From Tubulanus polymorphus (Eukaryota; Animalia; Nemertea), in contig NC_134029.1 of NCBI RefSeq assembly GCF_964204645.1, forward strand, positions 20,392,950 through 20,456,949: a stretch of 64,000 bases of DNA. The letters run 5' to 3'. The notes below the pieces were generated by a model. It did not search any database and was not told where the DNA came from. It saw only the letters and a list, made by a program, of their open reading frames with translations. Positions 1,905 through 8,000 of the stretch are shown piece by piece (within the stretch, counting starts at the first letter, position 1; each line of letters starts with the position of its first letter). A program made the position numbers and the translations under genes.

Positions 1905-2003
1905 TTGCTACCGTGGGTTACGTCTTTAAGTTACATAACTACGATAATTCCGTTGGCGTTCGTGCTCGGTTTGACGTTCGTTAAAGATATGCACGACGAT
2001 GTA
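1905..2003 (+). CDS. ATP8B: ATP8B alternative exon A (TM1 end-loop-TM2): [33 protein letters not shown]
   Basis: tttag|99 nt|gtaagt, phase 0/0, joins 10274 (QRHRSD) in frame. Confidence 0.9.
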
Positions 2004-5000
2004 GTAAGTTGTCCGGAAGGCTGTCGGGAAAACCAACATCACCTATACGTGGACCCCCCCGGTTTTTTTTTTTTTTTTTTTTGTTTTACTTTTTTTCGTA
2101 ACACATCCCTAAAAATCCTAACTTCGTATCTTTAACTTTTAGCAGGTGTTTGGCTCCCGGGAATCTGGTGATTTCGTTCGAGCACTAATTAACATTGATT
2201 GCACTGATTAGGATACGATAGATCGTTTAGATTATTCATTTTAGATGTTATTCATGTTTGAATAATTAGTCTTCGATGCTTTCTCTGTTTCGATCGTAAA
2301 ATGTTGCATAGAATTATTCGGGCATTTTTCGAAAAGTCGAATTAAGCCGCGCGGCTTATGCTATGGTTTCTAAATTTTCCAAATTCAAGAAGCGCATTTA
2401 GAATATCCGTTTCGATTAGCTCTTGGCTGCATTTTTCAAAGTTGGTTCGTTTAACTTTCCGTCGAAATTTTCCGTCTAACATCTTACAACAATGATTACT
2501 CTTTAACCCATGAAGACTCTAAAACGAAGAGTTTAACCTAGCAAATTATTCAACGAAATTCGCTAACTCCGGTGATGGTGACAGTAAAAGAATGGGGTAG
2601 AAAATTGAGTGGGATCTCTGCTTTGAAAAACACAGCCCCCCCCCCCCCTAGCGAATATATGATATCATAGATGGAAACGCTTCGGTTGTCGATATATATA
2701 AATATAAATATATTTGTATATAGCCTGGTGTTTCGTGTGAAGCATTGCTTATGGGTGAATCAGCACTCGGGAATAGGCAAACGTTTGTTTGATTGATCGT
2801 CGATCAATTAGTCGTATTATTGATTGGAAATCGATACATCATCAATTGACGAAATTGATCGATGAATTAGATATTGCGGTTGCTATCTACCCGCGAGTTT
2901 CTTTTTATGGTCGCCGATACGTCTGCTATAGCTAGTGTAGTTCAGTTTTAATGGGGATCGTAGCGTAGAATATCGGTTAGAATATAGTGCGATAGCGAAT
3001 TATTCAGCGCGGCTGTTTTAGGGCTGGGATATCTCGTCTCGTCGCAGCGAGCGCTTTTTATGAAATCCTGTTTCAGAGAAACGAGAAATGGTAGCGATAT
3101 ACGCGATGATTTATCGGGAGATCGACTCTTCACCGAACTGTGTAATGACACTTGCCCAGCGTGTCTCGCGTAGAAACAACGACGACGACGCCCTACGCAG
3201 TTCTTCGATCTTCCGCCATAACAGATATCGAATCAACTTTTCATATATCGTTTTATTTAGACAGGCCACGGCGCGAAACATCAATATTGATTCTCCCATT
3301 CTACCAGAGCATTTCTAATAGACAAATAGCCTTTTTTATTTTTTGCAGATTATTATTTTTTCTTTTTTGCAGATTATTATTATTATTTTTTTCTTTAGAA
3401 AAAACTTCAAAACCCTGCTCGAAATGAATTGAAATGATGTTATGTTTTTTTTTCAAATCTCGGAATTATCTGATTTTGTGTCTTACATCAGATTATACCG
3501 TGGATTTCGTCGCTCACGTACGTTACAACGATCGTACCCCTCGTCGGGGTGCTCGGTCTCACCATGATAAAGGATGCTATTGACGATATCGTAAGTTGAT
3601 TCCTCCGTCACGAGCGTCTCTGACTGCTGCTAGGTGATAGAGCTCTCTGCTCTCTCATTCGCATATGCAAAAACAATTTCATCATCGTCATATTTGAAAA
3701 ATCAACGTTTACATATATTTGGCTGATGATCTGTTAGTTGTATATGTTTTTGGGAGATAAAGTTTTCATTTTTCATTTTACACTTTCGAACACACCGCAA
3801 AAAAATATACTGGTTTGCCTTTTGCCGTTTATTTCAATCACTTTTCAGACTGTCTTCACCTGTTGTACTGAAGTCAGCAACTTCTAATTTCTCTTATGTG
3901 AAATAAACATGCATAAATCGGCTAGTGGCAAAAATCACAATATAATATATACACGGTTGTTTTCACAAACGGACGAAGAGATATCGAAATTCCTCGTACA
4001 AAATTTGTGTGTTTTTCTCAGTTATTTCGTTCATGTTTTCTTTCCGTTTCGAAACTAATATTTCGCTCGATTTAGTTCCGCAGTTGCCACTAGACGGTCA
4101 GATCCGCAACTGTTGGAACTGGGGGGTATGGAAGCCGGTGACATCTGTTATTATGTTTGTCTCCCTTCTTCGTTGCTTAGAAATCTCATCTTAGAGCTTT
4201 TTAAAACAATGCCTAAATAACTTCATCGACTTTCAACTTACTAATAAACCCTTTACATTTCAGATACGTCCCTAAGCTGTACACTACTACGTTCTGTGTT
4301 TGTGATAAACTGTTAACTCTGTAATTCTTTTCAACACACACGTGTATACAAGGAACGTGTATAAAGGATATATTGTTTTTAGCTTCTCCGTCCGTTTGTC
4401 TCAGAGGCGTGACCGGTTTGAATCGCACGATGGCGTCGCGGTAACCAACAGCACTGCCAGCAACTCGTGCAGACATATCCGTTGGAATCGCTGGCCGCGA
4501 TCGCGCGAGTATTTCTGGCCCCTGCTAGATTAGGCCCAGCCCATCATTCCAACATTGGTGCCAGATTCGACCCGAACAAAAACGTCTTATCAGGACTGAG
4601 CCAAATATAAGCGCTGGTCAAATTATTGCTCACGAATGATTACTGGTTCTGCATTTACTTAGTATCGAGTATGTGAATTAGGCACAGGTCAAATTCGAAT
4701 ATTGGGCCTGATCCGGGGCCAAATCCTCTCCGCGCGATCGCGGCTACGTCATCCGACTGAGAAAAAGACACATCGTACGAAATGTGCAACAATCATTAAT
4801 CCGGTCGTTATTATTTACTTCTTCTTGTCTATTCAGTCGATATCACAGGTCTCCTCATTAAACCCTATATACACGATAGCCCCTCTTATCGGTGTGATAG
4901 GTTTTACTGCTTGTAAAGACATTTTCGATGACGCTGTAAGTGGTGCAGACTCGATATTTCATTGCTATCAATTTCTTCGTAGCTCTCGTATACTGAAACT

Positions 5001-8000
5001 GCTTTTCAATGTGTCTATTGGTATGTGTTGGGTTAATCGCGTACGGTACGCGTTGGTGCAGTTGAAAATGATACGCGAGGCGTTTATATGCAAATTGATT
5101 TAGACATGTGACCAGCAGTCATCCAATCACTAGTCGTTCAGCTGGTTCTGTAAATGACCGTCTATATTTCTGCACCAGGAGAAATGACCAAATTACATGT
5201 TTCGCTTGTAGCTTACAAAACGGTAGATCTTGGCGGCGGTTTGACTAAAATTATATACATTTCTGACTAATACACTAGACTCGTACACCGCCTACGACGA
5301 GGGCTTATGAAACATTGTTATTGTGGAGTATTTGATTAACTGTCAAGATCGTTAAACTAACCATAAATCAGTTGACAGGTATCGGGGAACCGTACAACGA
5401 TTGGTGATGGATTCGTATTTTGCGTGCTCGCGTCGATTCAATTCAGTACGCAATGCGAGTGGTAATCTCTGTCGTGGTTCATGTATAAATTTGCCGCATT
5501 GATGCTCCTCTCTCGTTGTGTCAGTCATTTTTCAACTGCGCCAAAACGCTCATTTCATCGCTGCTTAATGTACCCGTAAATTTGGATCGTTCGGTGTCGA
5601 CTGAAAAAAATGGATTTCTCTTACGTCACCCGCGAGAAGTTACGATGTCTTTCGACGTTTTTGTCAAAAGTTTCGATACTTCTACGGACCTGTAAATGAG
5701 GTCCGTGGTATTTTTAAATCGTAATCAATTTTACTAACGTTTTCTAGGAAACTCGTCAATTTTCTATTCTGTAAATTTTTGTTCCCAGCATAGAAAATCG
5801 CTAGCTACGTACTGTACTTGATAGCTGACTTTTCCACTCCTTTTTAACCCTTTCCTTGTGACTCCCTATTTGTGTGGCCCGCTTGAAGATGATTTGAACA
5901 CCTCCACTGAGTCATCTCAACAGTCAAGCGTTGCATTTTGTGAACTGAATAAAAAAGTTACTGAAATTTGCGGTACCAATTCAGTATAGAAAATGTTCAT
6001 GGTGTCGCTTATAGAATTTTTCGCATTTGTTTATCCTTCATTTTCTGGAATTATTGCGATCAGTGGAGTTGAATTGATGCGATGATTACCCGGTACGCGC
6101 AGCGTTCCCTGTTAATAAATACATAGCTCTCAGTTCATAGGTGGCTGTTTTATTTAAAGGTCTTGCCCTGGATTAGTTCATTGACCCCTTTAACGACTAT
6201 CATCCCCCTGGTGGCTGTACTAGTACTTACCGGCCTCAAGGATGCTATAGATGACATAGTGAGTTATTGGTTGGCATGTTTTCTATAGATATCATCGAAA
6301 TATGTCTCGTAACCAAAAAAAGAAAACAATTTGTACGATTCAACCCAACCGACCCTTTTCGATCTTTGAATTTGTGATATGTTGAATTTTACAATTTGTT
6401 TCAATTAGATTTAGACCTTGGTTATCCATTCAGGGTAATCTCGGTTTGTGACGATCATACAGTGATTGAACACGCATGAGTCCGCAGTTTGCCATAGGTA
6501 ATCTTGAATTCATATCTTCTCTCGAAACTAAGCTTGTTAAGATTTATGTATTTGGATTATATTTATGTATTTGGATTATATTTATGTATTTGGATTATAT
6601 TTATGTATTTGGATTATATTTATGTATTTGGATTCAAATATGAATCGAAATTTCAAAGCATGCTTAATTTCATCTGATAAACTGATATTTATTGGCTGGG
6701 TACTAAGGTTAACCCTTTAATCGTCTGAGTTAGACCAGTTAAGGCTGAAACTCGAAGGGCTAGTTGCTAAGTTGAGATTTAAAACCGATCCAAGTCCTTA
6801 ACTTAATAACATAAGACCTTAAAGATTTCTGAACACTATTTTCGCTGAGCTCAGGGTTTGGAAATCTAAACTGATGCATTCGAAAAAACTGGTCTCTAGA
6901 AGATAATTGCGATGGAAATATATGAATTTGTCTATGTTCTTGAAGGGTTGAAATTTGTAACTGTCGTTGAAAACCAGGGGCCAATTTTCAGCAGTATGAA
7001 AGATTCATTGCTATCGATGAAATTTTTGAAACACGCTTTCCCTGAAGTTCAAGAAATAAAGAATTCAGAGTTTGAATTTAAGTTCAAGCGAAATAGATTT
7101 TCTAAACAGCATTGAATTGGAAAAAAAGATATATAATTCAAGATTAGCCGGTGATACCTGTATTTAGAATGTGGTGTTGGATATTATATAATAAAGTTGA
7201 TTGAATGTAATTTATATCGAATCCTTAATTTTGTATCACGTGATTAGAAAATAAGCCGCAAATATTTATCGTTATTTGGCGAATGTTCGTTTATTTAGTG
7301 TAAAAAGTCGTTAAACTTTGTATACAAAAATCGGTGCGATTCAAATTTGAAAAAAAGCGTACAAAGTTTTCCAGACTTTTAACGATGGCATGAATATGCT
7401 TGTTTTTTGCGCGATGCGTTATTTGCCACATTGCATGTACATGTTCGATATGAATAATATATTTCGTATTCATTATTGTTATTGACATTAGGTTAACGAT
7501 CAGAAATATATCAGGCTGGGTTCTCATCCCATTATCAGAGTTGTATTCGACGATGTAGAATTTTCTGTTTCGCAACGTGCGTGATGCACAAATATGACTT
7601 TATGTAACCAATTAGGGATTTTTTTATTCGACTGCTAAAATTCGTTGATCGAAATTGTGCAAGATCGAAGCCTTTCGCTAATTACGAAATTAGCCCCATT
7701 CGTCAAAATCCTCTTTGTTGAGAACCCATCCTTACTAATTATGTAATTTCAGAATTAGTTGTACAGTAAACCTAGTCTTACTCAGACATAGCCGATTCGG
7801 ACTTTTGAGTAACTTGTACAAGAGCGAAATCATTTTTTGTCGTATTTTTCTTTCCTGAACTCGGACCTTGTTTAGCTAGGGCTGATTTCGCCGGTCTCAG
7901 TGTGTCACGAGTTCGACGAGGTTTACTGTAAAGTAGTTTATCCCGGTATAAAATTCGAGTCTATACGTCGTCGAGAAATGTGCTTCCAATTCCGTAGTTA

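Follow-up and report, generated by a model that had tools for sequence, protein, structure and literature searches.

In exon clusters of the Dscam, Mhc and MRP1 type, docking and selector sequences pair in the RNA among tandem homologous exons. A 64,000-nt stretch of the genome of the nemertean Tubulanus polymorphus (assembly GCF_964204645.1, contig NC_134029.1, positions 20,392,950 to 20,456,949 of the forward strand; hereafter the window, in whose own numbering all positions are given) likewise contains a tandem array of homologous, equal-length internal exons, here in a gene for an ATP8B-like lipid flippase (P4-ATPase). Unlike the clusters just named, it yielded no convincing docking-selector helix within the window. 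We consider it likely that these four exons, A to D, each encoding the exoplasmic loop and second transmembrane helix (TM2) of one ATP8B-type pump, are spliced one at a time, and we predict that the four resulting pumps differ in lipid handling.

A close described parallel is the invertebrate NALCN gene, which swaps pore-lining selectivity-filter exons (15/31) by alternative splicing, an arrangement that molluscs and other bilaterians retain but vertebrates no longer have (PMC3557258, available sections). The flippase locus resembles it in being a single invertebrate gene with an alternative exon at the substrate path and a similar taxonomic spread; it differs in that NALCN is an ion channel with two options per site and measured tissue expression, whereas the present case is a lipid pump with up to four options, known from sequence. 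The mutually exclusive exons coq-2a and coq-2e alter the substrate choice of a quinone-synthesis enzyme in animals including annelids and molluscs (PMC7434440, available sections). That enzyme belongs to a different protein family, and its substrate switch is genetically proven, whereas that of the ATP8B cluster is only predicted. Duplicated alternative exons also occur within the P4-ATPase family: human tandem-exon events are listed for ATP8A1 (internal) and ATP10B (N-terminal) in the supplement of PMC8373072, in the available part of which ATP8B has 0 occurrences. In contrast to the Tubulanus cluster, the ATP8A1 exon aligns beyond TM2, with the region of the cytosolic actuator domain, and that of ATP10B encodes the N-terminus, as far as the available supplement goes.

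With ATP8B1, ATP8B2 and Drosophila dATP8B, the Tubulanus product shares the same motifs and is colinear over the exon, although the arthropod-type and mammalian ATP8B proteins examined show one version of the segment, unlike the Tubulanus cluster. The dATP8B paper describes seven isoforms, none swapping this exon in the passages covered, and the available main text of a Caenorhabditis elegans paper on mutually exclusive exons (MXEs) names no tat- gene. We found no description of the cluster in the literature, although subscription papers, supplements or MXE databases could mention it.

The original prediction, made from the letters alone, was of four 99-nt exons with phase 0 at both ends, and each exon (Table 1) was found where it had been placed: 33 stop-free codons in phase 0, flanked by AG and GT, with phase 0 on both sides of D. 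Among the stop-free 99-nt AG..GT stretches of the window (30 on the plus strand and 28 on the minus), the pattern SSL..T..PL...KD..DD occurs in these four only; the xxPW start expected of all copies is present in A, B and D, whereas C begins S-I-S-Q. Comparison of the full flippase protein with the window by tblastn recovered the exons at E values of 7e-6 (A), 2e-9 (B), 7e-4 (C) and 2e-14 (D) and found no other flippase exon duplicated there. The introns measure 1488 nt (A-B), 1246 nt (B-C) and 1224 nt (C-D), with 4015 nt from D to the next exon. Adjacent and homologous, equal in length and phase and bounded by canonical splice sites, the exons have the layout of a mutually exclusive tandem cluster. 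By a splice-site matrix trained on the flippase gene's own sites and compared with 620 GT and 414 AG sites, the donors of all four rank in the top 0.3-2.4% of GT sites, inside the range of the gene's own donors, and the acceptors of C and D are strong and that of B moderate. In exon A a weaker donor lies 3 nt before the main one (2000/2003) and would yield a 96-nt form in frame.

One downstream exon matches the T. polymorphus RefSeq protein XP_074651966 at 99%, and exon D together with the 18 exons that follow it (10274-20091) translates without mismatch to residues 70-1187 of that protein. Residues 1-69 are encoded upstream of the window, and residues 1-64 had no tblastn match in it. Membership of the P4-ATPases is indicated by Pfam PF16209 and PF16212 and by the motifs DGET, PISL and DKTGT, and the best PDB match is ATP8B1 (phmmer, 1252 bits vs 907 for ATP8A1, with ATP11, Drs2, Dnf and Neo1 at 907 or below; a ranking by similarity, without a whole-protein tree). 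Judged by its sequence, the host gene is an ATP8B-type P4-ATPase.

The four copies are strongly diverged (pairwise identity 47-61% in DNA and 42-73% in amino acids), and their flanks are unrelated (ungapped identity 22-45%). Identity at third codon positions is near random (0.21-0.39) as against 0.64-0.85 at second positions, and with pS of 0.69-1.0 and pN of 0.22-0.41 among the pairs, synonymous sites are saturated. In a neutral simulation in which D was mutated at random to the observed identity (substitutions only, indels ignored; 20,000 runs per exon), AG, GT and frame survived in 2.8% (A), 5.5% (B) and 2.4% (C) of runs, a product of about 4e-5, and the observed protein identity to D lies above the neutral 99.9th percentile for A and B. 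The codon pattern indicates purifying selection on every copy, clear for A and B and weaker for C. These results bear out the proposal of a single gene with a tandem exon cluster diverged in DNA yet kept in length, frame, length and GT/AG having survived at saturated synonymous sites; of the outcomes named as refuting it, neutral evolution is contradicted by the codon-position constraint, less clearly for C, and separate truncated copies by the absence of any other duplicated exon. Differences between sequencing run X1 and the window (0 of 4 in C or D; 0 of the 14 listed, of 15, in A or B) are too few to gauge constraint.

Sequences of relatives were taken from protein-cluster look-ups, which gave 371 proteins, 320 of them with the exon motif; the isoforms among them are computed annotations. 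One-at-a-time use of the exon, as had been proposed, is seen in annotated isoforms of seven other lophotrochozoan species, which swap exactly this 33-residue segment. Lineus longissimus has four variants (T-P-L, S-Y-I, S-Y-V and H-P-V at exon positions 9-11), and its isoforms X2, X3 and X4 depart from X1 in residues 106-138 alone, the loop-TM2 exon. Octopus sinensis and O. bimaculoides have two variants each, X3 differing from X1 only within residues 103-135, and two variants differing only within this exon are likewise annotated in each of Littorina saxatilis, Patella vulgata, Gigantopelta aegis and Mercenaria mercenaria. Exactly one copy of the motif is present in 318 of the 320 motif-bearing proteins. 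Two Littorina gene models hold two copies, and in both an N-P type precedes a T-P type, which is also how C and D are arranged. Two full-length isoforms each came from Lingula, Octopus vulgaris and Tubulanus, and none of these isoforms swaps the loop-TM2 exon; several other species are represented by one protein each and are hence uninformative on the swap. None of 253 arthropod-type proteins (a highly redundant set) swaps the exon, all being T-P or S-P, and in several beetle-like genomic sequences the open reading frame continues across the site of the upstream intron, so that no swap would be possible there.

The four Lineus variants parallel the Tubulanus set. Exon A best matches Lineus X3 (22/33) and X2 (21/33); B has its best BLOSUM score to Lineus X3 (23/33 identical) and is identical to Lineus X1 at 25/33 positions; D is identical to Lineus X1 at 26/33. 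Exon C is without a clear Lineus partner, and its N-P-I loop is common to the Octopus alternative exon, which has Ala at position 12. Exon trees were built from 33 columns, with 0 of 17 branches well supported, and seven groupings were submitted to the approximately unbiased (AU) test. In these trees A, B, Lineus X2 and X3 and Mercenaria X1, an aromatic group, cluster weakly (52/88), and the mollusc alternative exons (Octopus X3, Littorina X2, Patella X1 and Gigantopelta X2) cluster at 94/87. A Lineus-only clade is rejected (p-AU 0.025, one of the seven groupings tested), as is a Littorina-only clade (p-AU 0.0002). The exon duplication likely predates these species, to go by these comparisons, and the evidence falls short of one origin for all. 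In Babylonia, the proteins P0162 and P0166 show 295 differences and come from different contigs, one annotated with a T-P exon and the other with an N-P exon; gene duplicates there possibly divide the splice forms between them.

Positions 2-33 of the exon align without gaps to residues 133-164 of ATP8B1, the whole exon corresponding to 132-164. The upstream exon ends in Q131, the first position of QQ/GA, and the first residue of the loop-TM2 exon aligns to ATP8B1 132, directly after Q131, in agreement with its predicted identity as the second QQ/GA position. Exon positions 12-13 correspond to T143/T144, the headgroup-binding pair in M2: a review assigns headgroup anchoring in ATP8B1 to T143 in the E2P state and to Q131 and T144 upon occlusion (PMC11225554, available sections). 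The wide groove of ATP8B1 has been ascribed to the position of TM1-2 (PMC10657443, available sections). A weak AlphaFold model (pLDDT 63 overall and 47-59 at the exon, pTM 0.47), used solely for helix ends, places the end of TM1 at residue 68, the loop at 69-78 and the start of TM2 at 79, with low confidence. The exon had been expected to encode the end of TM1, the loop and TM2; the loop and TM2 are borne out and the TM1 end is not, and by alignment and model the exon covers little more than the exoplasmic loop and TM2. At position 10, A and B have a vertebrate-like aromatic residue (Tyr, against Trp in ATP8B1 and ATP8B2), and C and D have Pro, the residue also present in insects and a sponge. 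Exon C has Tyr at position 12; Ala occupies that position in four of five mollusc alternative exons of N-P or A-P type, Gigantopelta X2 being the one with Thr, and also in the second Babylonia protein. Nearly every homologue has a hydrophobic residue at position 1, where C has Ser.

In the mechanism that we regard as most likely, the spliceosome would pick one of A to D for joining between the TM1 exon and the exon at 10274, with D as the common form. Four proteins would result, with different loop-TM2 walls, that is, with different outer walls of the lipid entry groove. Each of A to D has one hydrophobic span, which upholds the argument from topology in the original prediction: with one membrane span per exon, zero or two copies would keep the frame yet probably invert everything downstream, so that splicing would have to be exclusive. 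Since 99 is 33 x 3, frame-shift decay cannot enforce exclusivity, and introns of 1.2-1.5 kb are too long for simple steric exclusion; the enforcer is likely regulated choice or competing RNA pairing. A GC-rich intronic 24-mer (708-731) is predicted to pair with zones upstream of all four exons at -20.4 kcal/mol or lower (P 0.003 vs decoy quartets, in one of several layouts tried). Pairing is also predicted with 11 of 55 decoy tiles, and at 7-9 bp the longest helices of the 24-mer are no longer than those of decoys. We treat it as a docking-site candidate and a lead only. A docking site sought downstream did no better than shuffles, and no intronic element common to all four exons was present among the 20 largest repeat families listed. 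As to function, the swaps at position 10 (aromatic in A and B, Pro in C and D) and position 12 (Thr vs Tyr in C) could change groove width and headgroup contacts and hence lipid preference or turnover, a prediction from the residues themselves that we regard as close to an even call.

Several observations weigh against four lipid-selective pumps chosen by splicing. The strongest known selectivity residues, the TM1 Gln, TM4 Asn and TM6 Asn, sit in constitutive exons; the TM1 Gln is named as the strongest determinant for phosphatidylserine (PS) in section 4.1 of a review (PMC12424579); and ATP8B1 is described as broadly permissive, occluding phosphatidylcholine (PC), PS and phosphatidylinositol (PI) alike (PMC10657443, available sections). 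The exons may then be exclusive and functional, with the swap tuning turnover, TM1-2 opening, CDC50 binding, trafficking or membrane fit in tissues rather than headgroup choice. Together with the main selectivity residues lying outside the exon and the even handling of lipids by ATP8B1, the retention of T12-T13 in A, B and D and the hydrophobic position 1 of nearly all homologues favour this possibility, which we take seriously but doubt: the changes most specific to a class fall at positions 9-12, at the groove mouth beside T143/T144, and the first Thr is lost in C and in most mollusc N-P-type exons.

A further group of observations concerns use of the exons in Tubulanus itself, where both RefSeq isoforms (X1 and X2, differing solely at the N-terminus) and the only spliced contig use D. 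Sequencing contigs over the locus came from 4 runs of 2 samples in 1 study, none recorded as RNA. No splice junction of A, B or C was present in the contigs of the 4 runs, and contigs drop rare variants. The acceptor of exon A is weak (36th percentile of the 414 AG sites), C sits on a long branch, and at 0.42 the amino-acid identity of C and D does not reach the 99.9th percentile of the neutral simulation (0.48). The AU test does not reject a Tubulanus-only clade (p-AU 0.11), and the relatives' isoforms are computed annotations. On the strength of the exclusive appearance of D, the weak acceptor of A and the long branch of C, it could be supposed that only D is used in Tubulanus, and that A to C, left over from an ancestral cluster that Lineus and molluscs still employ, have recently fallen silent or are seldom spliced in. 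We think this improbable, because A to C have held their exact length, their frame and strong donors although their synonymous sites are saturated, four counterparts are annotated in Lineus, and just one sample has a spliced contig, of a kind that drops minor variants. Functional, exclusive use of A, B and C in some tissue or stage of Tubulanus is, we infer, probable.

The spliced contig, 5908 nt from run X2, is joined 6258->10274 (GT..AG) and runs on over the four exons that follow. Ahead of D it has 145 letters, which end in window 391-420, and donor 422|423 is joined to 6160, so that A to C are skipped. The joined segment has an in-frame stop just before the D joint and is distinct from the TM1 exon, the next in-frame Met lying at about residue 140; possible identities are an intronic first exon, a poison exon and a splicing intermediate. 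A strong acceptor lies at 398, inside the segment. Position 422 was considered as a recursive splice site, a reading that found no support, the AG there being a poor acceptor (-5.8). Run X2 has no contig over A, B or C, which we do not count as evidence for the reason given above. Runs X3 and X4 gave unspliced pieces only over A and C and a loose end inside B at 3513 without a match elsewhere in the window, which is probably a library chimera, run X1 being collinear there. When A, B and C served as a search profile, the 58 proteins recovered were all of T-P type, the named ones from insects, and no transcript-derived A, B or C protein was among them.

It is very improbable that the exons are ordinary cassettes, skippable or combinable, that give inactive or regulatory products. 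The 99-nt length does preserve the frame, splicing near the cluster departs from the standard pattern in the contig that joins 422 to D, the exon is missing from one Patella RefSeq model, and the two double-copy Littorina models, from GenBank, include both copies; exclusivity may be leaky, or these Patella and Littorina exceptions may be model errors. Set against this are the near-universal single copy in motif-bearing proteins and the inverted topology that an altered number of membrane spans would bring, an argument made also in PMC5740500 (available sections). That each exon comes from a separate truncated gene copy, or that the repeat is an assembly artefact, can be set aside almost entirely: no point in its support was found, tblastn shows no other exon duplicated in the window, the copies are only 47-61% identical with unrelated flanks, and two run X1 contigs (1613-3909 and 3960-6571) are collinear with the window.

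Table 1. Features of the ATP8B-like flippase locus in the Tubulanus polymorphus window
Feature	Position	Strand	Remarks
Alternative exon A	1905-2003	+	Loop S9-Y10-I11, T12-T13; aromatic class; absent from RefSeq models
Alternative exon B	3492-3590	+	Loop T9-Y10-V11, T12-T13; aromatic class; absent from RefSeq models
Alternative exon C	4837-4935	+	N9-P10-I11, Y12 replacing the first headgroup Thr, Ser at position 1; most divergent; absent from RefSeq models
Alternative exon D	6160-6258	+	T9-P10-L11, T12-T13; version used in RefSeq X1/X2 and in the spliced contig
Non-coding intronic segment	391-422	+	Weak donor 422|423 spliced to exon D in the sole spliced contig
First constitutive exon after the cluster	10274-10408	+	Phase 0 acceptor; 6258->10274 GT..AG joint in run X2
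17 remaining coding exons of the ATP8B-like P4-ATPase	10981-20091	+	DGET, PISL, DKTGT, C-terminal autoinhibitory GYAFS-type tail; stop 20089-20091

The introns of the flippase gene carry a (TA)n microsatellite (424-533), a 19-nt tandem repeat (6542-6636) and a 40-nt tandem repeat (9971-10173), and contig depth marks high-copy interspersed repeats near 1-200, 9450-9570 and 11740-12020. Convergent with the flippase gene, two tandem sodium:neurotransmitter symporter genes (SLC6, PF00209) lie on the minus strand at about 27900-32000 and 33100-40200. Pieces of an ABC1/AarF atypical kinase gene are found on the plus strand at about 54400-58600, with PF03109 at 57290-57637; a 274-codon open frame at 54374-55195, without a Pfam match, may be the first exon of that gene.

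Elsewhere in the flippase, Lineus has a second annotated swap, between P0122 and P0002 at residues 956-978, where an 84-nt TM6 exon with the phosphate-binding Asn comes in one variant like vertebrate ATP8B2 (Y-D-Q) and another of the invertebrate D-P type. The corresponding Tubulanus exon (18774-18857) is single-copy, no second TM6-type exon being present in window 18195-19700, and a Mercenaria model is without this exon. In the brittle star Amphiura, the ATP8B protein P0157 has the loop S-Y-I-T-T, as in exon A and Lineus X2, and echinoderm genomes may hold the cluster too. It is conceivable, though in our view unlikely, that the single ATP8B of the bilaterian ancestor already carried aromatic-loop and proline-loop gate exons as a lipid-selectivity splice switch, that the aromatic form became fixed in vertebrates and nematodes and the proline form in arthropods, and that nemerteans and molluscs kept and expanded the switch, the TM6 swap of Lineus turning it into a combinatorial flippase. 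The S-Y-I-T-T loop of Tubulanus A, Lineus X2 and the brittle star fits such an ancestral switch, within the limit that 33 residues cannot separate ancestry from convergence.

The cluster is real and conserved and, apparently, undescribed, although the kind of system is familiar from NALCN and coq-2, and it marks three unannotated coding exons in the Tubulanus genome. Which entry-gate features set the lipid preference of flippases is given as unresolved in section 4.1 of the 2024 review (PMC12424579), and the substrate of ATP8B1 itself is disputed. In these exons nature offers variants of the loop-TM2 wall that are under selection, with the rest of the protein unchanged; they make a clean swap system and point to positions 9-12 as candidate tuning sites. 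If the selectivity of the four forms differs, for which we found no described precedent, the cargo of a lipid pump would be chosen by splicing.

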